Source: Microthyrium microscopicum
Taxonomy: Eukaryota
DNA length: 20,000 nt
Reading direction: 5' to 3'
Assembly (NCBI GenBank): GCA_010405405.1
Contig: MU004231.1
Location: 3,574,583 to 3,594,582 of the forward strand
Shown: positions 1 to 20,000 of the stretch, piece by piece
Layout of the letters: each line of letters begins with the position of its first letter
Numbering within the stretch: position 1 is the first letter of the stretch
Position numbers and translations under genes: made by a program
The notes under the pieces: generated by a model
Databases searched by the model: none
Told to the model about the DNA's origin: nothing
What the model saw: only the letters and a program-made list of their open reading frames with translations

Positions 1-192
1 GCACGCGAACAAACTTGGCCTTTCCGCTCCCACGCCGCCATCAACCTCCATTGAGGCCATTCATCATCACATCTACCAGCCAGTCTGAGGTCCTTTTACC
101 GCCTGACTTTTTGATCTCCTTGTCTCTCAGGGCCGCCCCGCCCGAGTGACCTCAGTCCTTGACCCGAAATTGAATCCTGATCCATCGCCATC

Positions 193-595
193 ATGATGTC
201 TTCACTCTATGAGCCGAGAGCTATGGAAGGCGCTAGGAATCGCAAACAAAGCATGGCCGAACTTAAATTGCGTCGATTACAAGAGCTGGTGGCGCGATTG
301 AGAGAAGATTTGGAACGAAGGCGGATACCGGTATCAGAAGCAGCAAACGAGTATGTTCCATCGCCAAACTTGCCAAACTCATCTCGGATATTTCGCTAAT
401 CGTAGTATCTTCACAGTCTCATCAATTACACTAAAAAAGAGCCCAAAGATTACATGGTACCATCATTGTGGGGATACGTAAGTTTTTCTATACTCAATTG
501 ATATCAGAGTCAGCCTTACTGACCCATCATAGCCTGCTAGAGGCGAGGACCCATACACACCTCAACAAACGGGCGGCTGTTGTTCAGTAATGTAA
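193..595 (+). CDS. gpgA: Heterotrimeric G-protein gamma subunit (Ste18/GpgA family), 93 aa; exons 193-350, 417-477, 533-595
   Basis: KQSMAELKLRRL..L..RLREDLER in exon 1. Canonical introns 351-416 (GTATGT..GCTAAT..CAG) and 478-532 (GTAAGT..CTGAC..TAG) splice in frame to LINY..KDYMVPSLWG and EDPY.PQQTGGCCSVM*, ending in the CCaaX lipidation motif of fungal G-gamma subunits. Confidence 0.96.
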
Positions 596-1339
596 GAGAT
601 GCAAGAATGAGCGGATTAGATGGTCTTTTCGTCATCATCAAGGCGTTATGGGTCAGGGAAACGTTTTCAATCTCTTGTGTATTCCATCAAGTCTACTGGA
701 TCATTGGTTGATACGCTATAATACCCACGCATGCCCTACTCTGCTTCATATGGAGCCGGTTTACGTTCCGGTTGATAGCTGAATAGGTTTGGATTTGGCG
801 TCAAAAGCCGTGGGTGGCATTCATCATTAACGACTGGTTGGAGGGACCAGCAAAACTTGCGATCGGTGCATTTTCGATGTTCGATAAGAAGCAACCGTCC
901 GAGATTAATCGCAGTGTCAAACTCAAATAAATGTTTTAAATGCTAGTATTTCCTCAATTGTCATTGGTCGCTTACCAGATACCGACTGCAAAAAAATGAG
1001 TGGATTCGTCCGACCTTGTTTGTACTTTGTGTGCCAGAACGGTTCATGCTTTATTACTATTCCAGTACCGGAGGACAGGTCCGCTTCCTCAACATTGATA
1101 TTCCAGCACTTTAATGGGACAGGGTATGCATGTCAAGTCATTTACCTGCCCGTCATTGGGCCGGAAAAATCAACCAGGATATCGAATGTTTTAAAGTACC
1201 TACTACGTAGTGTCCTATTTTCGGCCTCGTCAATGGGCTGGCAAGGCTGGTCACTCCGCTATAAAAACAACCCGATACCGGGTTTATCAACAACTCCAAA
1301 CACTTACAACAACATAACAAGTCGAATAAATAAATCATC

Positions 1340-2405
1340 ATGGCACACAGAGCAAGCGTAGGAATCATTTCAATTGGGGAGATGGGTTTGGGTGTCGCAA
1401 AGCTCCTCATATCACAAAATTACCGCGTCTTGACAAACATCACAGGCAGGAGGTACGTACCGAACACATTCTGATATTCCAAACCACACTTCTCTCCAAA
1501 AAGAAACGCTTTCAAACTCTAACATCTGTCATAGCCAACATACCCAAGACCGAGCCAAAGGCGCCTCCGTCCAACTCGTCTCCTCAGACGCAGACCTAGT
1601 CCACCAATCCGACTACATAGTCTCCATCGTGCCCCCCAAAGACGCCCTCGCCACCGCCGACCGCATCGTCTCCGCACAATCCAGCAAACCACGTCCCTCT
1701 GATGCTTCTCCCCTGTACTATCTCGACCTCAATGCCGTAGCACCCAGTTCCGCGCTCGCCATTGCCGCGCGCTTCAAAGACTTGAGCTCCGCCATCCGCT
1801 TTGTTGATGGCGGCATCATTGGTGGTCCTCCAAAAGCACCAGCAGATGGCGGCGATGCTAGTGATGCAGCTGCATGGACGCGTCCGTCCATCGTGCTGAG
1901 TGGCAAGTTTCCGCTGGTCGAGGCACCAAAGGATGGGAAACATATGGCCGAGTTGCTGAACACGAAACATGTGGGTGATGATATTGGCGTCGCTAGTGGA
2001 CTCAAGTGCTGCTATGCGACGCTCACCAAGGGATTCACTGCGCTGGCAATCCAGAGCTATACGACGGCCGCACGGCTGGGTGTGCTGGAGGAGTTACGGA
2101 CTGAGATTCGTGCGACGAATCCGGCGAACGAGAAGAGGGCTAATGGTGGCCTGGTTGGCATGGCGCCGAAGAGTGGACGGTGGGTGGCGGAGATGCACGA
2201 GATTGCAAAGACACATCGTGAGACTGGTGGGTGGGCGGATGCGGGTGAGAAAGAGGGTGGAGCTAGTGGGATCTTTGATGGAGCGGCGGAAGTTTATAGA
2301 TATGTTGCGGAGGATACGGTGTTGGGGAAGGAACATAGTTTGAAGAGGACGAGGGGGACTACGGCGGAGGATGTGGTTGCTGCTATCAATGAGAGTAGGA
2401 AGTAG
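1340..2405 (+). CDS. 6-phosphogluconate/3-hydroxyisobutyrate dehydrogenase-like NAD(P)-binding protein with DUF1932-type C-terminus, 327 aa; exons 1340-1452, 1535-2405
   Basis: ATG at 1340 gives Rossmann motif VGIISIGEMGLGVA. Intron 1453-1534 (GTACGT..CTAAC..TAG) joins in frame to the 1629-2405 ORF with SIVPP, YLDLNAVAP, DGGIIGGPP, ASGLKCCYATLTKG and RWVAEMHEIA. Confidence 0.9.
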
Positions 2406-4353
2406 GTTGTGGGATCAGAGATCCATAGCGGCATGTAGTATCGATAAATAAGATAGTAACTACTAGTAGCTGGTAGAAACATGATTTTTTCTTACCACAA
2501 ATATGAGAACAGCGATATCAAGAGCGTGAATCTCACCACAGACGGCGACGGGCTCTGCAGACTGAGCCATAGACGACGAGGCCCTTTCACAAGGTCTCCC
2601 GCATGTACAATTTTTCATTCTAATATTCCCTTATAGTTTTGCCTGCCTCTTGTTGCTGCCTTTACTTGTCTGCCAATCGCTGGTCGATAGTCAAAGCACA
2701 TGGTTGCGGTTCAATGGCCGATACTAATGGGCAGTGAGCTGCTGTGGTATCCTCGCCGCGTAGCTGTTATGGTCACGGCAGTAAGACGAAAGGTTGATGG
2801 CTTTTCCGCTTTCTTGTCCCAACGTCGCTTCTTCGTCCGATGCGTGTTTGGGTTGAAAAACACTACACGAGCCGGCGCCGAGGACAAGATATCTTTGAGA
2901 AAGGCTGGAGATCGGTGGCCTTCTTCCAACGAGCGTTGTTGGATCTAGTCAAATGAGCTGAAAGTCCCAGGCCACGGGGAAGTTCTGCAGCGCGAAAACG
3001 ATGAGAACAGTTTTGAGAGGCAGATGAGTACTTCATTTCGTTGAAGTACGATATCGGCTTGGAAGGATCTCGAGTAGGCCCCTTTTTGAAGCATTACAAG
3101 ATCAGACTGTAGTTGCACCCACCAATCATCACTGTGACGGCCTGTGTTCGGTATAAGGCTAAAGTATAATCTTTTGGCTATGCGAGTATTCCAGATACAA
3201 CAAAATGATCTTAGTTATCGTTAGGAAGCTTAAGCTCGGAAGCGTCGAATGCTGCTTTTAGCTTTGGCATTCGTAAAGACTGCGATCGACGATTCCGTGC
3301 CTTGCAATTCAAGTTATGACGTGCCCGCCTACCTACTTGAGTAGGTCGGCAGGGCGATAATCAGCCTGATGGTGACCGTTATATTCGACATGGTATAAGC
3401 GGTCAAGAATACGGCGATGTATGGTTGGATATAAATAAACAAACAAACTTCGCCGCGGAGAACCCGAACCACCCTCTAGAGAAAGAAGGAAACACTACAT
3501 GGCCCTTTTATGTAAGTCAATTGCGCCAAAAGACTGGGAGTTCTCCCTTCATAAGGATGAGCTCCATAATACTTGAAGCCCAAGTATTTTGCTGGAGTGA
3601 GAAAGATCAGGCATAATGTACATGTTTGACAACAACACTACAAATTCCGAAACCAGCAAAACGTCGTATGGTTACCAAGTATCCCAAGAAACCACTTGGA
3701 CGCCAAAAAGTTGGCAGTGTCAATAGCTTGAATATAGAGTATTCGATTCAACCCTCAACATTTCTTTTACATCTCATTTTCTGGTAGTTGGTGTCTACAT
3801 GACAAAGAAATAGCCATCACTCCATGAGGTTCAAAGTTGTGGCACGAAGGTGACTAATTTGGAAATCCCCAGTGGTTTGAATAGATCAAGTCCAATCGTT
3901 CGTCCATTTCACAGCAAATACGCCGCTCAGTAGGTGGGAAGTCTCCAGTATAAGTCACAAAACTTGTACGTTAGGGCCAAAGAATAGTGGAAACATCTTT
4001 GCCCAAGGCCCAATAGCCAAAGTCCTTTTTCTCTCTTGCAGTGTGCTGAACAGCGAGACGTTTCATATCTTGAACTAAGCTCTAGGCCTGCCTCAAGTCA
4101 ACAATGCGTCAAGTTTCTACTCTTAACTGCCCAATTATTAAACATGACCAAATCTGATCGGCATCATTCGCCTGAATACACTTAGTACCCCAGAGAAGTT
4201 TATAGAATACCTAAATGTGATGTGAGAACCAGTCATCCTTTATCCACGACTTACAACCTGTCACTCCAGCGTCAGTGAGCCGAATTCTGGTCGACATGAA
4301 AATTTCTCTCATATTATTGTTGTGAATATCAACTATAGCCCTTGACAGTGGGA

Positions 4354-5610
4354 ATGTCTCTCATGAACGATACATTCACAGCTTGGAGGATACCCCTCTA
4401 TGTCTTGCTGGAATGGCCGAAAGCTGATCTCGAGCATCCTGTGATAAGGAGATGGTCAGTGCCGATTTATCTTGCGCTTTGGGCTCTTGGAACTGTGTGT
4501 CTACTGGGTCGGTCATATGCTAGATATCAAGGAAGAGCGGGGAGACTAGCGATAGATGATACTATACTGGGGATTGCCTGGGTAAGTTCAGTGACTGTCC
4601 ATGATGAACGAGCTGACAGGTCTTCAGATATTTGCCACGATATCAATCGTAACGAGCATATATGGTAGGCTTTATCAAGCAACTTCAACACATATCTAGT
4701 ACTGACATTAGGATTAGGTGTCTTGGGAGCTGGCTTTGATCGCCATGTATGGGATGCTCTTGTCTTCGGCGGCCGTCAAGGCGTGGTATGGCTATCGATC
4801 TCGTGAGATATTCTATCGCTAACGAAGCCACAGGCCGCATGGGTCCATGAACTAACCTTCATCATCGGCTCCTCACTTGCGAAAGCCTCTGTTCTTGTCT
4901 TCTATCGTCGAATATTTGCTCCAGTCAAATTCTCCACGATGAGATGGGCAGTCGACTTTGCATTATTCATCACCTTAGCTTTCATGACCGCCATATCCAT
5001 CAGCATCATTTTCGCCTGCTCTCCGGTTCATGCCTTCTGGGATGCGTCTAATCCGACCTACGGAGGGAAATACCATTGCTTCGATCGTCACATATACGAC
5101 CCTATCAAAGGCTTGATCAGCGTCATAAGCGACATCTTTTGTCTTCTTCTACCACAAATTGTTATTTCAAGGCTGAAGCTAGAAACAGGCGCAACATTAC
5201 GCTTGAGCATAATATTTGGGTGCGGGATCTTGTAAGATATCTCCTTCACGTTTTCACTGGGATGATCGCTGACAGAATGAAATAGAGCTACATTGGCTGG
5301 CATTGCTCGGACAGTAGAGTTAACACGACTCTACTCAGATCCATTGCGGGATCTTACATGTAAGTCCTAAAAATTCCCAAGCATCAACAAATGCTGATCA
5401 CGTACAGGGGTTGGACACGATGTCTTCCTTTGGGCAGAGGTAGAGATTCAACTGGGTATAATATGTGCTTCAGTCCCTATGATCACGACCTTATTTCGAC
5501 CTCCATCACAAGCAGTACAGGACATGATGAAGTCAAAATCGGCGGAGAGAGAAAGTCAACAACCAATAAATAATACCACTGTCCAGGAATTGTCAAATCT
5601 TAACCCATAA
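4354..5610 (+). CDS. PTH11-like fungal rhodopsin-domain integral membrane protein without CFEM, 335 aa; exons 4354-4581, 4628-4664, 4718-4785, 4834-5231, 5286-5359, 5408-5610
   Basis: Five GT..branch..AG introns splice to one 1008-nt open frame with family motifs WP..D..HP, R.YAR....LAIDD, FDRHVWD, KASVLVFYRRIF, C.PV.AFWD, SDIFCLLLP, DLTW and EIQLGIICASVP. Confidence 0.9.
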
Positions 5611-5657
5611 TGAAGTCGAAGGAACCTGAATTATTGTATTATGTATAAACCATGACG

Positions 5658-6513
5658 TTACTGGTTTTTAGCAATCAATTCTCCATTAGTAACCACATAC
5701 CATGCATCCTGAGTTGTCTGAAAGTCTTTCCACGCTCTTGAAATCCGTTGCATATCCTCCTCTTTTGCCATTCCCATGGAAACACAGTTATCATGAAACT
5801 CCGACTGTAATACTCGATCTGCCCACATCCCTATAACCCGTTAGCTCGACATACTCATGGCCAACGAATGACTTACCAGCCCAAAAGTCCAATCCTTCCT
5901 GATCCGCATAAGTCCAATTACTGCTAGTCACCGTAACATCACTCTGCTCAAACCCAGCCTCCCTCGCAAACTTCCTAAACATCTTTCCCGCCCCTGGATG
6001 TGTCCCCAAACGTGTCGAAATCCCCCAAAACAGCTCCCTAAACTCCACCAGCTCGGGCTTCTCCGGCCAATGTAGGAAGTCCGTCATATCCCGCACCGCC
6101 ACTATCCCTCCCTTCTTCGTTACTCGCCTCATCTCCTTCAGCGCTCTGACTGGATCACCTAAATGCTGCAACACCTGATGGGCATGAACCACATCAAACG
6201 TGCCATCCGGAAAGTCGAGCGCATACACATCGCCCGTGTGGAACTCAACGTTCGCCACGCCGCTCTCTTTGGCAAGGCTCGTTGCGTCCGCGATGACAAT
6301 GTCAGCGCGGTCAAGTCCAATGACGTGGCCTGAGGGCACACGGCTGGCGAGGTCAATGGTGATGTTGCCGGGCCCGCAGCCGACGTCGAGGATGGTAGTT
6401 GTTGGAGTGAGGTGTGGGACGAGGTAGGCGGCGCTGTTTTCGACGGTGCGCCATTTGTGGGAGCGGAGAACGCTGGGATGGTGGCCGTGGGCGTATTGGG
6501 CTTCTTCTGGCAT
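5658..6513 (-). CDS. Class I SAM-dependent methyltransferase (UbiE/Methyltransf_11-like), 269 aa; exons 6513-5877, 5830-5658
   Basis: YAHGHHPSVLRSHKWRTVENSAAYL, motif I ILDVGCGPG, FDVVHAHQVLQH, MRRVTKKGG. A 46-nt intron 5876-5831 (GTAAGT..GCTAAC..TAG) leads to GMWADRVLQSEF...ISRAWKDF...DAWY..GELIAKNQ*. Confidence 0.92.
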
Positions 6514-7046
6514 GATGAGTGGTATGTGTGATAGGTGATTGAGTGGTGTTTTGGGGTCGATGATGGATGTTGCTGGAGTAAGAGGTCAGTGACTGTTTGA
6601 ATTGAGCCTTAAAAAGTGACGAAAATGAGGCTTCTTTGATCACAATTATGGGACTGCGAAGTCGGGATCTGACTATTTTATATGCATGGCTATCTATTTC
6701 TCAAACCCTTGCGTCCTCTTACAAGTAAAGACAATTAGAACCTACCTTTCAGCTAGAATGATTGTTTGGTTGCGATGTCGGAGTGATATGGAGTTCAGGA
6801 GACGGCGCAGACGATCAGGGTCCTGAGCTCTTTAAATGTTTGTTGGATCAGGCTGAAATTGGTGGAAATAGGCCGGATATAAATACTACTTATTAGGCAA
6901 CACCAAAGATAGATTGTGTGGCAAATCTCGTCGACCTAAGGTACATCTATTCAGAATGCTAGAAAAACCGTAATTACTGTATTGGCACTAGAAGCAGGTT
7001 AATATACATGTGTGAAAATACAGGGTATCATAATACGAAGAAGTCG

Positions 7047-8543
7047 TCATGAAGGTACTGATGGTTTGTGAACGGATGGTGACTTCAGATTGTTCTCAAT
7101 CCAGCCGCGACCATCAATCTCATTTTCGGGAGAGACAATGTTCTCCATGCTCCATTTCCCGAGCACGCGGATGCCTAAAGAGCTGATATGTCCAGCCTCA
7201 TACATTTCGCATCCAGCCCAGCCTATCATAGCCGCATTGTCTGTACACAGAGCAATGGGTGGAGCGCAAATTTCGATGTGACCAAATCCTCTAGCTCTGA
7301 GGAGTTGTTGAATGACATAACGCAAGAATTTGTTGGAAGCGACTCCACCACTAAGGACTAAGGTCTTGGAAGGCGAACTACCATGGCTCTTCTCTTCTTC
7401 TAGAGCGAGAACAATTCGACTCGCAATTTGCCCAAAGGCAACTTTCATGGTTTCTTGCGCTAAACACCGAGCTTCGGCCTCTGGCATAAGGCTCGTTCGA
7501 TTTTGCTTGCTCCATTTTGACAGCGCTTTATCCCATCCTCGCTCAGCGATTCTCTGGGCTTGAGATTCAATTCCCGTGAAGCTGAACTCGGGTATGTTGA
7601 GCCTTGATCCTGCTCGAGAGATGGCGAGTGGGAGAGTAATATACCACCCATAGGACGTTGGACGCTTTGCTCGAGCTCTCTCTTCCGAAAGTGATTTTGG
7701 CGGATCGTAAGAGTAATCGGACGACCCATTAGGAAAGGCGAACTTTTCTAGGATAGGGCCGTATGATGGAGTTTTACTGGATGCTATGAGCTCCTCAGGA
7801 AGCAGAAATCGGCCGATCTTGTCAAGACAGTCTCCAATTGCATAATCTCCCGTGTTTGCTAGGATCTTATGGGTTACAAGATCCTCCGACCTTACGAGTA
7901 GTGTGTGGCCGCCCGAGACAAGAAGTGACAGAAATGGGAATTCTGGCTTGGGCGATAGGTTGGTGTTTGGAAAGTCTGCCTTCCCTGGCAACTCAGCATC
8001 CAATGCATTAACAAGCCTGGATGTCAAAGCATGGGCTTGCATATGATGTACTCCGACAAGAGGAACCTGCCACGCGACTGAAAGTCCTTTTGCTGTATGT
8101 AGTCCAGTATTCAGACTTGTCCGCATTCCGGGTCCTCGAGTGACTGAAATGAAATCCGGAGCTTTTCTCAGCGAGCTCGAACCATCCTTTTCAGATATTT
8201 CAATGCATCTTGTCGAAGAATTGTAGCCGTTCGCAGGGATCGCAGGACGTGGGAGGTATGGCAAGGCTTGATTAAGCAGTCCAGCAAGTGTTTTCTCGTG
8301 GCCTTCGAGGGCAACTATTGGATGGATGCCAAGCAGAGGACCTTGATCCGCTGTTATCCGCTGATTGAAATGTAGACGGGCAGCTGCGCCGTTCTTCTCG
8401 ACTATTGCGACGGCAGTATCGTCACAGCTGGTTTCGATTGCAAGAGTAAGGAGACCACGGCGCCGAATGGCGGAGGATATCGTTTGGACCAGAGTCCTGT
8501 GAAAGGCATAATGAGATGTCTGAGAGAGACGATAAAGCTTCAT
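7047..8543 (-). CDS. QRI7: Mitochondrial tRNA N6-adenosine threonylcarbamoyltransferase (Qri7/TsaD family), 498 aa, single exon
   Basis: LAIETSCDDTAVA, VTRGPGM, GVHHMQAHAL (metal-binding HxxxH), LLVSGGHT, GDCLDK, FSFTG, SGGVASN, LCTDNAAMIGWAG; basic/Ser-rich N-terminal presequence. First ATG is at 8543 (the ORF track start at 8546 is TTG). Confidence 0.95.
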   Translation of the reverse strand: MKLYRLSQTSHYAFHRTLVQTISSAIRRRGLLTLAIETSCDDTAVAIVEKNGAAARLHFNQRITADQGPLLGIHPIVALEGHEKTLAGLLNQALPYLPRPAIPANGYNSSTRCIEISEKDGSSSLRKAPDFISVTRGPGMRTSLNTGLHTAKGLSVAWQVPLVGVHHMQAHALTSRLVNALDAELPGKADFPNTNLSPKPEFPFLSLLVSGGHTLLVRSEDLVTHKILANTGDYAIGDCLDKIGRFLLPEELIASSKTPSYGPILEKFAFPNGSSDYSYDPPKSLSEERARAKRPTSYGWYITLPLAISRAGSRLNIPEFSFTGIESQAQRIAERGWDKALSKWSKQNRTSLMPEAEARCLAQETMKVAFGQIASRIVLALEEEKSHGSSPSKTLVLSGGVASNKFLRYVIQQLLRARGFGHIEICAPPIALCTDNAAMIGWAGCEMYEAGHISSLGIRVLGKWSMENIVSPENEIDGRGWIENNLKSPSVHKPSVPS

Positions 8544-8593
8544 CAAACGCTTGCAGTATCTATCGTGAAGATTGAATCAAGCAATTGCGACTG

Positions 8594-8614
8594 TGATACC
8601 TGATACCTGATACT
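8594..8614. repeat. Short tandem repeat TGATACC x3 upstream of QRI7
   Basis: tgatacc tgatacc tgatact seen directly. Confidence 0.8.
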
Positions 8615-8667
8615 GTACTTTTCACAGCTGCCCCTGCCGTCCATAAAACTGGACTCGGACTTATCTC

Positions 8668-8730
8668 AGTTCTCAGACCCTAACCCTACCCGTCCGCGGG
8701 CTCCCTCCGTAGGAGGGTCTAAGGCTAACT
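8668..8730. repeat. GC-rich inverted repeat/hairpin at the gene/AT-block border; candidate transposon terminus
   Basis: CTCAGACCCT (8672-8681) pairs with AGGGTCTAAG (8714-8723) with one RIP-type TG>TA mismatch; outer AGTT/AACT; inner CCCG-tccg-CGGG and CCCTCC-gta-GGAGGG. Confidence 0.65.
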
Positions 8731-9810
8731 TGGATCTTTTTAGTATGACGCGCTTCGTAGTTATTAGTAAATACCTATATTATTATAATTATGTCCTTAC
8801 TACTAATATATAAATATTTTTAATAATTCTACTATTATTATAATTACTATCTTTTTCTTTATTAATTCTATAAATTATATCTCTTATTAGAAATACGCAT
8901 TATAGAGAAGAGTCTTATAGAGATAACCTAATTTCTATATAAGCTAGGTATACCTCTCTTTAGTAATAATAGTAATAAAGATAGATTTATCTCTATAATA
9001 ATAAAGACTCTATATTTATATATCTCTAGTAATATAATAACTATAATAGATTCTATAAATACCTTAAGTAGGATTTAATATAAGCCTAATAATACTAAAC
9101 TATTAGGTTATTTATAATTAGTAATAATAATAATACTATAGTAAAGCCTAAACTTAGTTAAATAAAAGCTTACTTTAATACTAAAATATATTTAAGATTA
9201 AAAGATAACTATAAAATCGTTTTTTCTATTATAGGCTAGCTAAAAAGATACTTATAGTAATATTATTCTTAATAGTAACCTATATATTAACGTTATTACT
9301 TACTATAAGCTTTTAAAGGACGTTATAGAAGAGTTATTAAGTAATAGAATTTTACTAAAGTATTATATAGATTTTAGACTATAGGTAGAGTTTTATACCC
9401 TTATAAAACTTATAAGCTTTAACTACTTTAGTAGTAAAGTAGATAATATAAATATTAACTTTAAGAAAGCTATTAAGAAGATAAGAAATACTATACTTAT
9501 TTAGATAGCTTTCTTTTATAAACTTATATATAATTAAAATTATAAAATATATAAATAGAGTAATAAGCTAAGATAGAAGCTTATATATATAATTATAATA
9601 ATTATTTTTTATTAGTAGAGTAGAGAGATAAATAACTATTTAGTAGTAATACTTAGAGTCTATCTACTTAGGTTAGATATAAAGAGATAAATTATAGACT
9701 TACTAGTAGCTCTTAAAGTATATACTAGTTATAAGACTATACTAAGATATATAAAAAAGGTTTTAAGATAAGCCTTAGTATATAATAGTACTATACTTAG
9801 TATTAAATAT

Positions 9811-9920
9811 AAAATCTTATAAAATCTTTAAATATATTATAAAATTTTTATATATCTTATAATATCTTTATATATATTATAAGATCTTTATATATTTTAT
9901 AAGATCTTTAAAAATCTTAA
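9811..9920 (+). repeat. Minisatellite of 11 degenerate 10-mers (20-bp higher-order unit) inside the putative intron
   Basis: aaaatcttat aaaatcttta aatatattat aaaattttta tatatcttat aatatcttta tatatattat aagatcttta tatattttat aagatcttta aaaatcttaa. Confidence 0.85.
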
Positions 9921-11194
9921 GTTTATAACCTTAAAAAACCTTATATATTACTAATACCTAATATATAAAGAAATATTAGATAATATATACTAAACCGTTA
10001 GGCTATCCTATATTATAATAATATAAACTTTATATTTTATAAGTATAATAAGATAGTAGGTAATATTATAAGTATAGTAGCTATTACTACTACTATTATT
10101 ATAATCTATTTATTTTTACTTCTAAGAGGACTAATATAAGATATATATAATCTAATAAAGGAGTTTAACTAGAAATTAATATAGAAAGGCCTATTAGTAA
10201 AGGCTAATAGCTAAGAAGGTAAATATATTAAAACTATTAGCTAGTACCTTATTATAAATACTTTAAAACGTAGTATTCTAGATATTATTAAACTTTAGAT
10301 TATAAAGTATAAAAAGGATAAACACTAGCCTAGTATACTAAATATTAATATACTTATACTATATAAAATAAAGTTTAATTAACTTAGTACTATTATAAAG
10401 AATAAAGAAATAATAAATAGTACTTACTAAGTATATAATAAAATTTTCTTATAATATTTTAGCTTCTTAAAACCTCTAATTAATAATATAGAAGATATAG
10501 CCTTATTATTAGATATTATAGCGTCTATTTTATTCTCTTTACCTAATTCTAGACTAGATGCCTCTTTATCTAGTATAGCCTATTTATCTTTTAGCTAAAT
10601 ATATAGTAAGAGTTTATCTATCTATTATATTTCTAGCTAGGACGGATCTAACGTAGATATATTTAAGAATATATCCTTATCTAGCAGCGGCCCTAAAGAT
10701 AATAACTATAATAATAACTATAATAATAAGTAGATTAATATTAAAGATAATAATATAAGTAAGTTTAATAATAGTAAAATAGAAGAAGCGTCTAATAAAG
10801 AAGGTAGTATAAACATTAAGTCTATTAATAATATAAGTATATTTCCTAATCCTAGACGTAGTATTCCTCTAGTAGATTCTATACTAGTATTATTATTTAG
10901 TATCTTAAATATAGTTAGTAATAAAAACTCTACTAATAGTTTATAAGCATTAGATCTAAGTACTAAAATCTTTAGAAAGAGGCTATTTCTTATTTATAAT
11001 AATTAGTTAAGTATAAAGATTAATTACTCTATTAAGGCTAAGGCATTTAATAAAATATAACTATATAATTTAAGGAAGTTCTTTTATTTAGTTTTTAGGT
11101 AGTTCTATATATATATAAACTACTTCTTCTATATTATTTAAACCTATTAGGATTCCTCTAAGGTTAATATACTAGCTTTATATTCTATTATATA

Positions 11195-11207
11195 TAATAT
11201 TAGTATA
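11195..11207 (+). repeat. Left copy of 13-bp target-site duplication TAATATTAGTATA
   Basis: Identical to 18338-18350; the DUF6589-type reading stops right after this copy. Confidence 0.85.
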
Positions 11208-11289
11208 GAAGCATTATTATACTAAAAGATTAATTTCTTAGAATTATTCTATAAAACTATTATTATTAGATTCTTCTTATTAAGACTAT

Positions 11290-12970
11290 TATAATAGTAT
11301 AACTTTTAACTAGACGTAAGCAATAGCTAGCACTATAGAGATAGATAAAGATTTATAGTAGATAGCTATTATTACTATAGAGGCTACTTACATTAAAAAT
11401 AAGGCAATATAGAAACGAAAAGATAACCTAAAACTACTACTTATAAGAGTATAGAGAGAAATTAAAGTACTATTAGGAAGACTTATATCTAAAGAAGAGA
11501 ATCTAATATAACTATTCCTTAACTAGCTAATAGCTAATTTTATATAATATTATACATTCTTTGTTATAATATAAGACTATATTAAATAACTAGTATTCTA
11601 CCTAGCTCTAACTATAAATAAGGCCCCTTTACTAACGCGCTTTAAGGCGCATCTTAACTAAAAACTTAATATAATTATAAAGTAGATTACTAAGATTAAA
11701 ATAACTCCTAACTCCTAAGTAAAAGTTATAAAAGGACCTAACCTACTAATCCCTAACTAAAGAGCCTCCTTTATAAGCCTAATAGTCTAAATTAATATTA
11801 TAAAAGTAGTTAAAAATATATTAAAGGAAGATAAGTAAAATAGAGTAAAGTTATTTAAAAAGATTAAAGAAATTATTCTATAGATAATAGCTATTAAGCT
11901 ACTACCTAGCAAGAATATTAATATTATAATTAATACATAATTAGATAAAGACTATATCTAAAATAGGCTACGCTAAGTAGGCTTAGATAAGGTTTAAGTC
12001 TTATAATAAGACTATTTAGTAGAGATCTTAAGGGCTCTACTTAAATTAAACGTAGCCTATAGTAAGAATATAAATAATAACAAACTAATTAAAGAACTAG
12101 TTAATAGAAATAAGATAAAGTTTAAATACTTAAAGATAAGAGTAGTTTAATAGCTTTATAGAAGTATAGAGTATAAATAAATAAAAAAAGAACTAGAAAA
12201 GCATAAAAAAATACGTACTAAGGGATTACTTATATTATACTACCTAATAATAGTAATAAAAGATAAGGTTATCTAGAAAAAGTTTATTATTAGAGTAAAG
12301 GAGCTCTTTACTAGATTATATAACCTAAAATATATTACTAAATAATACTTCTATTATTAAGTCTAGAGCTATATATAAATAGCTTATACTTAATATAAAC
12401 TAAACTATAGCAAATATATAAGTAATTATAATACTAGGGACTATACTAAGATAAGCTTAGTCTAGTACTCTAATTATAAAAATAATAAGAAAGAAAGTAG
12501 GAGAGAGAAAGAGTAAGGCTAAGGATATTATATATAGTAAAAGAATATATATAAAGTATACTAAACCTACTTTAAGAATATAAAAGAATTTTAGGTAGTA
12601 AATAAAAGATATATAGAATAGATAAAAGCTATAATACCTATCTAAATTATACTAATCTAGCTTATAGATAATAATAAATATACTATAGTAAATAGTATAA
12701 AGAAAAGAAAAATAAGAACTAAGAACCTTAGAAGACTATTAGTATTATAAAAAGTAAAGAATAAGATATATAATAATCTAGTCTAGGGTACTTAGAGATT
12801 AATTATAAGTATATTTAACTTTAATAGAGGTAATAATAGCTTATAAATTATAAGAAATAGCGCCTTAAAAGACTAATAAAGAAATAACTATAAGAAAGTA
12901 AGATAAGCTATAAATAACCCTAGGCTAACCTCTAATAATAAAATAAGTAGAATCTAAATAATAAACTTAA
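11290..12970 (+). pseudogene. LINE ORF1 (gag-like) relic; start approximate
   Basis: De-RIP: AIK.LPSGDI (~11890-11920), QCF.CQ.WGH....C (12343-12387), CGKC...H.TRDC (~12406-12444), CSNC...H.AW....C (~12466-12552), all in one frame. Confidence 0.82.
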
Positions 12971-15900
12971 ATAAATAGTATTAATATTATATAATATAAC
13001 TATAAAAGATTAAATAAAAGAAAAGTAAAGCTATTCTTTAATTTACTAGATAATACTAAGTAACTAATTATAGTAGTTTAAGACTCTAGAAGAATTATAA
13101 AGTTAGGGGAAATATACTACCCTCCTAGCTATACTCTAATATATAACTAAGATAATTAATTAAAAGTATACTTTATAATAAGTAAGGTACTTAATATAAG
13201 GAACTAGTAAGTAAAATATTATAATTAATTTGTCTTAATACTATGCCTTTAGTATAAGTATATAATATTAATAATTATTAATATATATAGTAAAGGCTTA
13301 GTAATAAGTAATTATAACTATATTACTAAACGCCTAATACTAATAAAGATAATTAATAAGGCAAAAGAAGAGATCTTATTAGTAGAAGACTTTAACTATT
13401 ATTACTATTAATAAAAAGGCATAGTATTAGCTACTAAACCCTAAGTAAATATTTTACTTTATAATATAATTTAATAAAGACTTTACCTAGATATACTAAA
13501 AAGAGAGCTAATTTATAGATTGCATAAGGAAAAGAAAGTAGGAGTAGTAAAAATAGTAATTAACCTTATATTTATATCTTAATTTCTTTAAGAAAGACTA
13601 AAGTTCTATAACCTAGTTAATACCTAGGTATTAATAGAAGATTATATCCTAGTACTAATTTAGCTTACTCTAAAATAAGAGAAGTATATACTAAAAGTAT
13701 AGTATAATATATAAAAACTAGATATAAAATAATTTATTAAATATATAAATAATAGCTTATAAGATACTAAAAATATACTAATAGAGGCTCTATATAGAGT
13801 AATAATAGAAGTACTAGAGATTTACTACCTAAAAGTAAAACTCTTAAAGTAAGCTTTATATAGGTAGTTACCTATAACTACTCTACTAATATAGAGAAAG
13901 CACTATATAAGAAAAAGATACCTTTAGATAGAAAATAATTAGAATAAGTATATATATAAATTAGTTATAGCTTAGCTAAGAAAATCTCTACGCTAAGATA
14001 AAGTAATATCCTAGCGAACCTTTATAAGAAAGATTATAAAAAATTATAAGCACTATAAGAACTAAGGCTTATAGAGAATAAGTAAGTAAATAAAAGCTAA
14101 AGTAGGTAAACTAAAGGAAGACTTATACCTACTAATACTTAGATAGATAACTAGTAATAACTATACTTATAATAACTAAGGTAAGGTAAATATACTATCT
14201 ATAAAGTTCTTTTCTTAAACTAGGGTAGCAAACCTAAGTAATATAAAAGATACTATTCTACTCTTAAAACTAGAAATAGACTATAAGATAATAGTAAAAG
14301 AAATAAATTACGTAATTAGTAGCCTCTTAAATTATAAGGTAATAGGACCTATTAATATACTAAATAAAGTCCTAAAGGCTCTTAGGCTTAAGGCGTAGCC
14401 TAAAAAGAAGAATAATAATCTAAAACTAACAAAATTTAGTAAAAGACTAGTACCTATAATTAGTAAAATACTAATAAGTAATATAATCTTAGAATGCTTA
14501 AAGTAATTCTATATACTAGTACTAAAAAAGCTAAGTAAGAAAGACTACTTACTACTATTAGCCTATTAGCTAATTACTCTTAAGAATACTATAGTAAAGT
14601 TAGTTAAAAAGATTATTACTAATAGACTTACCTAACTTATAAAAGATAATAATCTACTACCCTAGAACTAAATAAAGGCTAGAGCAGAATAATTAACGCT
14701 AATAGTAATATAGCTCTTAAAGAGTACTATTAAGGTAGCATAGAAAGAAAATATAAAAGCTATAGTATTAGTACTTAGTCTTAACTTTTAAGAAGTATAT
14801 AATAATATTAATCTAAAGAGACTTCTTTATATCTTAGAGATAAAGAAAGTCCCCTAGTAGCTAATTAATATAGTAATAAGCTTTACTACTAATTATATAA
14901 CCTAAATTATATTTGCTAGGCACTAGAGCCTAGTAATAATAACTAATATAAGAATTCTCTAAGGATCTTTTTTCTTACTTATCCTCTTCCTCTTTTTTAT
15001 ATTAGAACTACTAAAATACTTCTAAGACATAAGTAATAATATCTTTAGATTTAGATTTATAGATAATACTATATTAGTTATATAAGATAATACTACTTAA
15101 AAAAACTATATAAGATTAAAAGAAGCTTACTAGAAGTATACTAACTAGGTAAATAGATATAGTATAAAGTTTACTCTTAATAAGTACTAAGTAATATACT
15201 TTACTTAGAATATTTACTACCTAGAAGTAGACTTATAATCTATAGTAATAGTAAATAGTATATTTACTAAGCTTATATTAAAGAGTATTAGAGTACTAGG
15301 TATATAAGTAAATAGAAGAATAAATTAGAAAGACTATATTAAAAAGACTAGAACTAAAGGATTTAAGCAAGTAGTAGTACTTTTAAGAATAGTATAGTTA
15401 AGATAAAGACTAGTTTTTAAAAAGATAAAGCTTCTTTATATAGTAGTTATTAGGCTAACCCTTATATATAGAGTATAAATATAGAGTCTAGAATTACTAT
15501 TCCTTAAGATACTAAAAGATTATTATAAACTACTAGTAATAGTTTAGAATGATATACTCTATAAGATAATAAGAAAATACTAAAGAACTTCTATTACTTT
15601 ATTAAATAAAGAAATAAGAGTTAAACTACTCTAGATAAACGCTATAGTTTTAGTAGAGAAATATACTAATAAGAATAAAGACTTAATAGTAATATAAAAG
15701 ATAAGCAAAATTATTACTAAAGTATACTAAGTAAACCTTCTAAGAAACTAGAGAATATTTCCTTAGTAGTAATAACTAAGAAGCTTAGTAATACTTAAAC
15801 TAGTATAGATATACGTAATTAAGATTATAGCTTAAGGAGTTAATATACTAAAGTAATAAAAGAAGAAATTAGAGATAAAGTAGAAGTAAGATACTAACTA

Positions 15901-16460
15901 TAAGTAAGTAATATAACTAATAAATAGCATACTATAAAAGAAAAAGAAAATAAAAACTAAACTAGAGTTAAAGATATCCCTAATTAGAGTATATTACTAT
16001 AAGCTCTAGATAAATACTTAAGTATAGCTTATAAGGACGTAGTAGCATACTACTATAGTATAGAGAATATTATAAAGTAACTAACTAATTAAGCTTTATA
16101 ATAGTCTTAATAAAGTATAAGTAATAGTGCTCTTCTTTATATAATTAAAAGTTATTAGACTTAATAATTAGCTATATAGCGTATAGGTACTAATAGTCTC
16201 CCTACTATAATACCTATATAGTTACTAGTAATAAATAGTTTACTATATATTACTAAACTACTTATAATATTATAAAGAAAGATTACTAAAATAAGTAATA
16301 ATACTAAATAAGGCCTATATACTCTCTAATCTAAAGAATACTTAAGTAGCAGCTAGATAGCTACTAAAAAGTAAAGCTCTTTAGTAATTTAGGCTAACTA
16401 AAAAGATTATAGAAATAAACCTTAAAGTACGTAGAGAATTACTAAGACTTAAAGATTCTA
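12971..16460 (+). pseudogene. LINE ORF2 (APE endonuclease, reverse transcriptase, C-terminal CCHC finger) relic; end approximate
   Basis: De-RIP motifs: I.QYNC..SN (12980-13015), IAVQ, LL.GDFN.HH..W (13376-13420), IDL.F, KA.GP..IPN..LK (~14337), VLKKPGK.DY..P.AYRPIAL.NT..K (~14520-14600), LLPWNQMGAR, LSLD...AYDN, GIPQGS..SPILFLF (14951-15000), FVDD (15056-15067), KFAPDKY, R.LG..D, CPCG...QTV.H.LL.C (16211-16261), ARW....G.L.QF.LA (~16350-16400). The motifs I checked share one frame. Confidence 0.93.
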
Positions 16461-16559
16461 TAAATAACTAACTATAATACTATAGTACTAATAGGCTAGT
16501 AATATATAATTATAAAGGAAATAACTAAGTCTAGGAACGTAATTAATTTTATTCTATAT

Positions 16560-17440
16560 CTATCTACTACTTTTTATTAAATAATAATACTACTCTACTT
16601 AATAATTAAGATATCTTTACTAATAAATTTATCTTTATGCTTTAAGCATAAAGCTCTAGCAAGATAGCTTATAAGTAAGCTAAATTAATAGCTAGTATAG
16701 CTATATTAACCTTTAGCTTCTTCTTCTTCTACTATACTAGTAAGGCTATAGTAGAAGTAAACTAAGCCCTATAGCTAGTAAACTTACTTACTAAACTCTC
16801 TATAACCTTTACTTACTTAGTAGCTTTCTTATTTATACTTAATAATATATACTTTTTAACGCTTTAATAAGAGTTAACTAGGTTAGCTATTACCTTATTA
16901 AAGGCACGTTAAAGGCGCTTACTTTACTCTTTTAACTTTACTAGTATTTTACTATAATATTAGAAAAGGCAAAAGATTAAAAGCAAAGATATACTTATAG
17001 CCTTATATTTAGAATATTACTCTTTATAATAAGAGTAAGGATGCTAGCTAGGGCTAGCTTAACTATAAATATAAGTAATTACTATAGTAAGCACGTTAGA
17101 ACTAACTAGGTACTTACTATTAAGTAACTCTATATAATAGTATAATACTTAAAGATAGTATAAATAAATTCTTATACTAAGGGTATATATAATTTATATT
17201 ATAATAGTTAATACTATATATAAAAAAATACTAAAAGACTTATAATAGGAGTTAAGATAGAATTAACTAATTTTATATCTAAGGATAAAGCAGTATTTTT
17301 AATATTTATAAATAAAGTAGTTTTTACTTTCTTTAGAGATAATAGAAGGAGGGTACCTATAGGTATAGAATATTTACTAAGTACCTAAAAATATAAAGAA
17401 GAGAAGAAAAGAAAGCCTATAGAGAACTTACTCTTAGAAG
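16560..17440 (-). pseudogene. Putative antisense intron-containing cargo gene (Cys6-like motif plus coiled coil) in the 3' region of the LINE insertion
   Basis: Minus-strand intron-like units at 17431-17385 (GTAAGT, polypyrimidine, TAG), 17117-17082 (GTAAGT..CTAAC..TAG) and 16998-~16950 (RIPed ATAAGT, polypyrimidine, CTAAT, TAG). TAY codons spaced Cx2C-x16-C-x11-Cx2C-x6-C, then a ~125-codon A/E/K/Q/L-rich exon. Confidence 0.55.
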
Positions 17441-18337
17441 AGAAATTAAGAAAAGTAAGAGGTATAATAAAAACTTAGAGAAAAAAAAGTAACTAAAACT
17501 ACGTAGATTTAAAATACTTTATACTCTAAAAGTAGACTATATAAACTATTAGAAACTTAGAAGTAGCTATTTAGTAGCCTATTATATAGTATTAAAGAGC
17601 GTAGATTAATAGAAAAAACTTAGCTAAAAGGTATTATAAATACCTTACTTAATAGGTATTAAAAGAGAGGGCTTAATATAGTTAAGAGCTATAGCAATAC
17701 TAAAGCCTATTAAGAGTAAAAATTAATTATAAAAACTTAGAAATACGTATTATATACGCTTATTATAAAACTATATAGAAAGTTAACTATATAAGGATAA
17801 TAGCTATAAGCCCTTAAAAAGAGAAAGATTAATAGAAACTTATTAAACTATAATAGTAAAACTTAATAATAAGGTAATACTAAATAGAAATAGGCGCTAA
17901 GAAGCTAGATCTAACCTATTCTAAGAGACGCTATAGCCTTAAGTAATTAAGTAATAAATAAGTCTTAAAAGGAAAACTAGTAATAGGAATAGTATTAAGG
18001 ATTAAGATCTTAGCGCGTAGTATAAGATCTATATAATATATAATATACTTAAGCTATATAAGGCCCTTAGTAGTTAGTAACTACTAGTTACTTACTATAT
18101 TAACCTACTAACTAGAATTCTTTTAGTAGGCTTATAGTTTATAAAGAGATAATATAAGTCCTTTTATTTAGAAGTAGTAAACTAAGAGGGTATTATAATA
18201 ATAATAGAACAAGGCTACTAGAAGGTAACTAAAGGAATACTATAAGTTTCCTTATAGGGGTTTTTCTAAAAGTAAGAGTAGCGTCTACATAGCCTATTAG
18301 CGTAGCTAAAAGATAATAAATAAGATTTATTTATTAT

Positions 18338-18350
18338 TAATATTAGTATA
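18338..18350 (+). repeat. Right copy of 13-bp target-site duplication TAATATTAGTATA
   Basis: Identical to 11195-11207; the DUF6589-type reading resumes right after it. Confidence 0.85.
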
Positions 18351-19450
18351 TAGGAATAAAGCTATAGAAAGTATAATAATACTTAAACCTATTAGGTTAT
18401 TTCTATCTTAATATAAGAATTTAGTAGTAGAGTCTTAATATTATTTTTATAAAGTTTAGACTAGAAAGGTTACTATCCTAGATATATTAATAATTTATTC
18501 TTTACTATTCTAGAACTACTTAAATTTTATATTAATAAGTTATCTATAGAATAGTTTAATAAGATTATTAAAGATATCTATTAAATAGCCTTTATAAGAA
18601 AAGCATAGAATAGGTATCTAAATAAAAGTAATAATATTAAGTTCTAAACTATATACTAGTACTTATAAGAGATTAAGTTACTCTTAACTATATAATATAC
18701 CCTTTAATATAGTAATATTAGACTTTTATACTTCTTAGTTAATTCTTTAACTATTTACTTTTATAGTACTAGTTAGAATAACTATAGAGATAAGATACTA
18801 TAGCTTAGATAGAACTTATTTAATATAAATACTCCTAAACTTTAAAGATTTATTCTAGCCTTAAGCTTAGTTAACTAAAAAGGCTATAAAAACTTTTTTA
18901 AGCCTATAGATCTAAGACTAGAGTATTTAAATAGTAACTATAGTAAAGATATAAAGTTATTTAGTAACTTAACTTATAACGTTAAAGTAATATTTAATAG
19001 AGTCTATCTTTATAATATATATATATATTATTTATAAGACATATTTATATATATATTTATATATAAAGCTAGTAATAAGTATACTAACGCTAGTATAAAG
19101 TATAATATATTCTTATTATACTAGAATTTAATTAAAGATAGCCTTATAAAGTCTTAACCCTAGTTAGTAATTAAGAACTATAGCCTATATTATAACTTAC
19201 TAGATATAAAGAGAATAGGACTTAATAAGCTTAATATTAAAGCTAAGTCTTTTAATTATAAAACTACTATTAGGCAAGATTATATAGAGAATAATATTAT
19301 AACTAGGCTTATTAATATTCTTAACTAAGACATTAATAGTAATAACTTAGATATATAAGAAGAGGTTATAATAGAGAAGACTATAAGTAATATATTATTT
19401 AATAAAGATAATTCTAGCGCATTTAAAGCTATAGAAGTTAATTTATAAAT
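18351..19450 (+). pseudogene. RIP-inactivated DUF6589-type gene, 3' part; end approximate
   Basis: De-RIP: W.R....QGF..RVL, D.EF....YLQE...L....AL..GDIGLL (~18630-18730), YFHG.GQ.NYG.EML (~18755-18800), PELQRFILASSLVN.KG....FKP.DL.LEHLN (~18835-18935), NSTHDV...FDRVCL, S.KHT, then an acidic tail. Confidence 0.8.
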
Positions 19451-20000
19451 ATATATTTATTTAAGGTTTCTACTTTAGTTATAATTTATATAAGGTTAAA
19501 ATTATAGTAGGATATAATAGGATCTTATCTATTATAATATAATCTAATTAATATTAGAAAATATTAGATAATATAAGATAATATTAGCTAATAGGATTAC
19601 GCTATTTAATTTAGCTTTACTAATAAATACTTTCTTATTTCTATAATAGGATTATTTTAATAGATAACTCTAAGCACGTCCTAGATATAGAATAGTATAT
19701 TAACCTTTATTATATATTAAATATAGAGGAGTTTAAAGTTATTATAATCTCCTATTTAAGTATTAGTTATATCTATTTATTAATTTAGACTCATTCTAGG
19801 TTAGCTTAAAGTATAGAGATAAAAGTAATTTTATACTACTAGGCAAACTACTATTATCTATATTAATAGTTTAAATTATTATCTTAGCCTTACTTATTAT
19901 AATATAGGATTCTCTATAAGCCTATAAGGTAATATATAGAATAATAAATAATTATATTTTATTTCGTATTAGTTCTATAATATTTTAAGTTTTATCTAAG

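Follow-up and report, generated by a model that had tools for sequence, protein, structure and literature searches.

We analysed a 20,000-nt stretch of the ascomycete Microthyrium microscopicum (assembly GCA_010405405.1, contig MU004231.1, positions 3,574,583 to 3,594,582 of the forward strand; hereafter the window), in which a long interspersed nuclear element (LINE) degraded by repeat-induced point mutation (RIP) interrupts a gene copy of the DUF6589 family. Our analysis indicates, with a probability of about 0.8, that the 1.88 kb lying between the end of the pol gene and the 3′ end of this element are the family's own long non-coding 3′ region, in a multicopy LINE inactivated by RIP. A first-pass annotation had read the same segment as antisense cargo containing introns. 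In our reading these minus-strand "introns" are splice-like strings, short and rich in TA, that occur by chance in RIPed DNA.

A full-length LINE inserted in a DUF6589 gene copy

The window consists of a half with a GC content of 0.41–0.59 (position 1 to ~8,725) and an AT-rich half with ~0.16–0.25 (~8,760 to 20,000). The RIP indices TA/AT and (CA+TG)/(AC+GT) are 1.4–2.0 and 0.00–0.15 in the AT-rich half, against 0.6–0.9 and 1.1–1.5 in the first 8 kb, and a scan for open reading frames (ORFs) finds none of at least 60 codons left in the AT-rich half. A six-frame translation, with X at stops, was used for a Pfam scan, and its single match was DUF6589 at 18,543–18,939 on the plus strand (E 8.5e-10). 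A protein search with this frame retrieved P0001 (E 1.4e-115, 53% identity), a DUF6589 protein of 1,062 aa listed at NCBI as a hypothetical protein of Microthyrium microscopicum. Local tblastn then placed P0001 on the plus strand in three collinear pieces. Residues 35–284 correspond to 9,028–9,777 (50% identity, E 7e-54) and residues 285–697 to 9,969–11,207 (50% identity, E 1e-103), and these make up the 5′ part of the RIP-degraded gene copy that was the target of the LINE (9,028–11,207). Its 3′ part, at 18,339–19,445, corresponds to residues 694–1062 (53% identity, E 1e-100). Residues 694–697 are encoded on both sides of the break, a 4-aa overlap in the same frame. From this collinearity, a RIPed DUF6589 gene is interrupted between 11,207 and 18,339.

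On either side of the interruption stands the same 13-bp sequence, TAATATTAGTATA, an exact target-site duplication (TSD), with its left copy at 11,195–11,207 and its right copy at 18,338–18,350; both copies encode NISI in the DUF6589 frame. Between them lies a RIP-degraded, full-length non-LTR (long terminal repeat) retrotransposon of 7,130 bp (11,208–18,337, plus strand), which is absent from P0001 and from paralogous copies. The corresponding empty site is found in contigs of paralogous DUF6589 copies, where 11,191 is joined straight to 18,343; this joint is carried by one contig in each of three DNA runs, all from one sample. A repeat scan and a comparison in purine/pyrimidine (R/Y) coding found no terminal repeats of the insert. 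At the right end, AATAAA stands at 18,315–18,320 and an ATTT-type tail, ATTTATTTATTAT, at 18,325–18,337. The description of this end in the first-pass annotation, with its right TSD copy, AATAAA and tail, was therefore accurate. Its proposal that the segment past pol had moved in the same event as gag and pol also holds, as the 1.88 kb lie within one TSD and the insert is one block relative to the empty site.

The remnant of ORF2 (pol) occupies 12,986–16,456 of the plus strand in frame pos%3==2 (frames are given as the remainder of the position divided by three). Over 14.1–15.6 kb this frame has 4–8 stops per 100 codons, against 10–22 in the other plus frames. A search with it retrieved P0002 (1,178 aa, source jgi; E 1.7e-51), an intact relative of pol with Exo_endo_phos_2 at residues 100–215 and RVT_1 at residues 499–726. 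By tblastn, residues 6–895 of P0002 correspond to 12,986–15,727 (E 4e-46) and residues 987–1109 of 1178 to 16,091–16,456 in the same frame (E 0.02). Both domains are covered by the alignment, which places the endonuclease at ~13,270–13,645 and the reverse transcriptase (RT) at ~14,530–15,220; the last piece (16,091–16,456) is the C-terminal Cys/His-motif region. The end of pol, previously put near 16,460, is thus borne out by homology. Frame pos%3==1 was also considered for pol and was ruled out by stop density and homology.

Upstream of pol, a gag-like ORF1 remnant lies in frame pos%3==1 of the plus strand at 11,260–12,820, limits that are approximate. It was held out of a codon model trained on the pol and DUF6589 pieces, and was scored as coding by this model. 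In a frame-only version, which compares in-frame with same-strand off-frame codon usage, the held-out ORF1 reached 16.4 against 10.5 ± 2.3 in simulations (P 0.017). ORF1 has no Pfam match, and in the RIPed pol itself Pfam misses both the RT and the endonuclease when stops are translated as X. No RNase H family was found in P0002 (E ≤ 10) or in the RIPed frames, but its absence from the window is uninformative, as Pfam is blind to the RIPed RT too. A search of metagenome contigs with P0002 gave 12 pattern matches, and none was confirmed. The element combines a non-LTR RT, an AP (apurinic/apyrimidinic)-like endonuclease N-terminal to the RT, a TSD without terminal repeats and multicopy status, and is hence an APE-type LINE.

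The 3′ region matches pol in summed depth

The 3′ region of the LINE spans 1,877 bp (16,461–18,337, plus strand). Contigs of the three DNA runs and of X5, a run guessed to be RNA, were mapped on positions 8,000–20,000 at a likeness of at least 80%. Four DNA-type runs from the one sample contain the insert, and one further run is guessed to be RNA. Summed contig depth, which is not a copy number, was 104 in X1 over unique DNA (8,000–8,400) and 1,034–1,964 over the DUF6589 flanks, which are thus themselves multicopy at ~10–19 times unique DNA. It was 5,769–7,871 over the ORF1 and pol bins (5,817–7,871 for pol alone), and the five bins of the 3′ region gave 8,239, 6,629, 4,639, 6,975 and 8,653. 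Past the bin that contains the right TSD copy, the next one fell to 1,464. Depth in X1 therefore rises ~5-fold at 11,208 and drops ~6-fold past the right TSD, in the first bin there, from 18,426; across 11,208–18,425 it is 45–83 times that of unique DNA, with the last bin among the highest. X2 has the same profile, with 112 over unique DNA, 368–894 over the flanks, 1,552–2,675 over ORF1 and pol, 1,416–2,522 over the 3′ region and then 426. The ratio between the mean depth of the five bins of the 3′ region and that of the nine pol bins is ~1.0 in both runs.

All depth steps are located at the two edges defined by the TSD, and no position of the mapped 8,000–20,000 was reported to have contig ends piled up. 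The number of variant contigs per site points the same way, with 17 at 17,266, 16–27 at the listed pol sites and 2–10 at most of the listed DUF6589 sites. Because its summed depth equals that of pol and falls only past the TSD-defined edges, the 3′ region is, within the limits of the depth method, an integral and equally multicopy part of the LINE family. This agrees with the earlier view of the segment as multicopy and as heavily RIPed as the remainder, its TA/AT being 1.8–2.0 and its (CA+TG)/(AC+GT) 0.05–0.09. A one-off 3′ transduction of flanking DNA, which the first-pass annotation had offered as one explanation, is excluded by a depth equal to that of pol. The equal depth and the lack of end pile-ups also suggest that pol and the 3′ region are continuous in other copies, which are probably physically collinear across 16,460.

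A segment of foreign origin could also have reached this depth, if a 3′ transduction or a nested element had entered an ancestral master copy and had since been propagated with the LINE. The composition of the region gives some ground for this. Its first 490 nt (16,461–16,950) form a pyrimidine-rich sub-part, with a purine fraction of 0.457 on the plus strand and a GC skew of -0.18, and are skewed opposite to the rest of the element; this is the sole hint of mixed origin. Just past pol, at ~16,565–16,640, there are A-rich, AAT-like strings such as an older 3′ end might leave, and the element is longer than its described relatives. However, most of the segment (16,951–18,337) is purine-rich at 0.590 and has the LINE's own sense-strand composition, ORF1 being at 0.586 and pol at 0.572. 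Comparison of the R/Y-coded segment with the rest of the window on both strands gave nothing above the null (maxima 32–34, null maxima 31–39), which means that it lacks TART-like repeats between untranslated regions (UTRs), terminal inverted repeats of a nested transposon or a copy of the unRIPed half. No known protein or transposable element relative was found with Pfam in six frames and the large protein libraries in two, and the depth itself speaks against a one-off event. Taking these points together, we regard a foreign origin as unlikely.

Other scans of the region returned little. R/Y coding found no internal duplication in the segment, the hits of tblastx and blastn to the remaining parts of the window were all short, AT-rich and scattered, and tandem repeats in the segment were limited to short low-score arrays. 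The only Rfam hit was mir-3119, with 20.7 bits against a gathering threshold of 80 (E 0.55), which is noise, and ARAGORN predicted no genes.

Two features of the 3′ region stand out. A polypurine tract at 17,395–17,480 (plus strand) was located by a purine-run scan and by copy joints; it includes a pure purine run of 21 nt (17,395–17,415), the longest in the RIP block. The tract varies in length among copies, as indicated by the joints 17,348 to 17,460 and 17,361 to 17,454. The 3′ terminus (18,273–18,337, plus strand) is composed of a ~52-nt motif (18,273–18,327), AATAAA and the ATTT-type tail, as seen in the sequence and in contigs. Folding of 18,200–18,337 was not significant (z -1.53, 15 of 200 shuffles being as good), and a RIP-tolerant IUPAC pattern for the terminal motif had no match in metagenome contigs.

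The terminal motif recurs in X5, in two long high-depth contigs of 1,514 and 8,574 nt that differ from it at 5–7 positions; all difference types listed for X5, over its five mapped contigs, are transitions. In one of the X5 contigs with the motif, the loose ends on both sides have a common 10-nt string. Judged by eye, these copies, of roughly 70 nt, could be a very short 5′-truncated insertion or a SINE-like (short interspersed nuclear element) element with the tail of the LINE, and we note them as a lead. The five X5 contigs on the mapped 12 kb cover, within the 3′ region, only this motif and are uninformative on expression.

Intron-like strings and coding signal in the 3′ region

The first-pass annotation had based its cargo on four intron-like units of the minus strand, at 18,095–18,054, 17,431–17,385, 17,117–17,082 and 16,998–16,950. 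All four strings are present at these places. Three of the four start with GTAAGT while that at 16,998–16,950 starts with ATAAGT, and TAG is found at or near their 3′ ends; the unit at 17,117–17,082 is only 36 nt long. An excess over chance is not confirmed. With overlapping donors merged, the minus strand of the segment contains 4 intron-like loci against 2.1–2.8 expected under Markov models of order 1–3 (P 0.14–0.33), and 2 against 0.55–0.70 when a branch site is required (P 0.10–0.17). Such loci are about as dense on the ORF1 minus strand, with 3 in 1.78 kb. An uncollapsed count of 7 donor–acceptor units against 2.4 ± 1.6 was set aside, its enrichment being inflated by overlapping donors in GTAAGTAAGT strings.

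An accessory gene, or several, on the opposite strand of the 3′ region would nevertheless explain some of what we see, as introns antisense to the element RNA survive retrotransposition. Two of the units, 18,095–18,054 and 17,117–17,082, combine GTAAGT, CTAAC and TAG, and the plus strand of the segment has no intron-like units. ACTTAC, the reverse complement of GTAAGT, occurs at 3.2 per kb in the segment against 0.56–1.25 per kb elsewhere, an enrichment that arises mostly from tandem GTAAGTAAGT-type strings. An accessory gene would also be an integral part of a multicopy family, as the segment is.

The coding measures argue otherwise. The largest putative antisense exon, 18,053–17,432, was read in three frames of ~207 codons, which contain 20, 22 and 20 stops, and with such even counts no frame is preferred. 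Since RIP causes transitions, it leaves the purine content unchanged; an antisense gene in 16,951–18,337 would then need a sense strand with 41% purine, unlike every coding region here. In the frame-only codon model the best minus-strand window of the segment scored 9.1 (P 0.52–0.78). None of the three minus frames gave a Pfam family, and within-segment copy joints have no GT..AG ends on the minus strand. With the unit count within chance, no frame preference, a purine skew in the sense of the LINE, no codon periodicity and no protein relatives in the frames searched, the antisense cargo gene is not upheld, and we give it almost no credence.

We also considered a third ORF in the sense direction, or a C-terminal extension of pol, ruined by RIP beyond recognition. 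A first codon model showed a weak plus-strand signal (up to 12) at 16,960–17,500, and frame pos%3==1 has 6–7 stops per 100 codons at 16,801–17,400, like real RIPed coding sequence. As no RNase H was found in P0002, some domain could moreover be out of view. The first model was strand-biased, however, and the signal vanishes in the frame-only model, where the best plus-strand window reaches 11.1 (P 0.21–0.38); it also overlaps the polypurine tract. A phmmer search with plus frame pos%3==1 of the segment against 1.84 billion representative proteins gave no match at E ≤ 0.001, and a word-indexed search with plus frame pos%3==0 gave no relatives at E ≤ 0.01. Given the pol and DUF6589 translations, which are just as RIPed, the word-indexed search does return relatives, and it is therefore not blind to RIPed genes. 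A lost sense ORF is in our opinion quite improbable.

We thus read 16,461–18,337 as a non-coding 3′ region, with a depth equal to that of pol and with neither coding signal nor protein relatives. Several points weigh against this reading, including the two complete splice-like units and the ACTTAC density described above. The absence of any Pfam family at E ≤ 10 in all six frames of the segment is a weak negative, as Pfam misses the RIPed RT. The large protein libraries were searched with two of the six segment frames, both on the plus strand, and a short or fast-evolving ORF could have been erased by this level of RIP. In addition to the nature of summed depth, in X3 the mean depth of the segment exceeds that of pol ~1.7-fold; 16,460 is not bridged by any of the 30 listed contig pieces (there are 13,264 more); and the single sample behind the DNA runs is probably the source of the assembly. 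The length of the element, given below, counts on the same side.

A further possibility is that the 3′ region is a conserved and functional module, either a TART-like source of spliced antisense non-coding RNA or what is left of an accessory gene whose frame was erased by RIP in all copies visible here. The units at 18,095–18,054 and 17,117–17,082 would then be real introns, preserved through their antisense orientation relative to the element RNA. We consider this improbable, to about the same degree as the lost sense ORF.

Proposed history, surroundings and related elements

According to the non-coding reading, the element is a full-length copy of a multicopy non-LTR retrotransposon with ORF1 followed by an ORF2 that encodes the AP-type endonuclease and the RT. 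Target-primed reverse transcription would have placed it in one of the copies of the DUF6589 gene, making the 13-bp TSD, and RIP would afterwards have mutated the inserted copy to ~20% GC. The 1.88 kb past pol would act effectively as a 3′ UTR, transcribed in the sense direction within the element RNA and copied at every retrotransposition. It would end in the terminal motif and the AT-rich tail, where reverse transcription would be primed, and the terminal motif is probably what the RT recognises.

Several observations concern the DUF6589 target. The P0001 alignment has a gap of ~190 nt, from 9,778 to ~9,970, which starts with GT, contains four 20-bp tandem repeat units (9,814–9,913) and moves the reading frame from pos%3==1 to 0. 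Either a DUF6589 intron or a small inserted sequence would account for it. Loose-end consensus sequences at 9,034 (DNA runs) and at 19,406 (X5, depth 1,502) carry on in sequence of normal GC content, which, translated by eye, resembles P0001 at the matching positions. An unRIPed and possibly expressed DUF6589 paralogue thus appears to exist. The one paper found on DUF6589 lists it among domains enriched in pathogenic fungi.

Past the end of the DUF6589 alignment, RIPed DNA runs on through 19,446–20,000. Contigs of X5 and of the DNA runs contain a joint from 19,606 to 19,790 in which 180 different letters are interposed, and the stretch is thus unlike the paralogous copies. On the other side, unique contigs terminate at 8,725–8,825, near the start of the RIPed block, and a short telomere-repeat-like string, CCCTAACCCTA, lies directly ahead of the block at ~8,672–8,690. 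The half of normal GC content (1–8,600) contains several ORFs, for example at 7,047–8,546 (minus strand, 499 aa) and 5,791–6,513 (minus strand, 240 aa).

Tad1 of Neurospora crassa is a fungal LINE that measures ~7 kb, has two ORFs, lacks a poly(A) tail and is a target of RIP; compared by description, the present element is similar to it in size, in its two ORFs, in the lack of a poly(A) tail and in RIP. The likeness to Tad1 and to the I superfamily is one of layout, and the Tad-clade label of the first-pass annotation is provisional; no RNase H was detected in P0002 or in the RIPed copy. Like the segment described here, the 3′ UTR of mammalian L1 is non-coding and has a polypurine tract of variable length, and L1 is known to take extra DNA along by 3′ transduction. 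The segment described here differs from that of L1 in its length of ~1.9 kb, in a tail that is AT-rich and not poly(A), and in belonging to a different clade.

I-superfamily LINEs of the Dothideomycete Cochliobolus heterostrophus measure 5.7–6.6 kb and carry two ORFs; their 3′ ends consist of AAT repeats, and their UTRs are called highly variable (PMC4112212). Two of them, I-1_CH and I-2_CH, resemble our element in lacking LTRs and in having two sense ORFs (a gag-like ORF1 and an ORF2 with AP endonuclease and RT), a 3′ end that is AT-rich and AAT-like, variable UTRs and many mostly full-length copies (PMC4112212). At 7.13 kb, with ~1.9 kb past pol, our element is 0.5–1.4 kb longer than the LINEs described there. 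For the antisense units, the nearest precedent is the telomeric non-LTR retrotransposon TART of Drosophila, reported to have very long UTRs from which antisense transcripts with multiple introns arise (PMC1636488). The spliced antisense RNAs of TART are reported to have no significant ORF (PMC1636488), so even there no antisense gene is involved. Set against TART as described there, the intron-like strings of the present element are within chance and direct repeats between 5′ and 3′ UTR are lacking.

The value of the finding lies mainly in annotation. In an ascomycete where RIP is strong, it adds a LINE family that is full-length, inactivated by RIP and unusually long in its 3′ region, and a clean insertion of a LINE into another multicopy gene, DUF6589. 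On the side of method, empty sites and TSDs can be defined in RIPed DNA by mapping intact relatives to it, and RIP-invariant measures (R/Y coding, purine skew) part questions of strand and coding from RIP noise; short splice-like strings are expected by chance in TA-rich RIPed DNA. If an antisense spliced unit were true, this would be the first fungal LINE with one.

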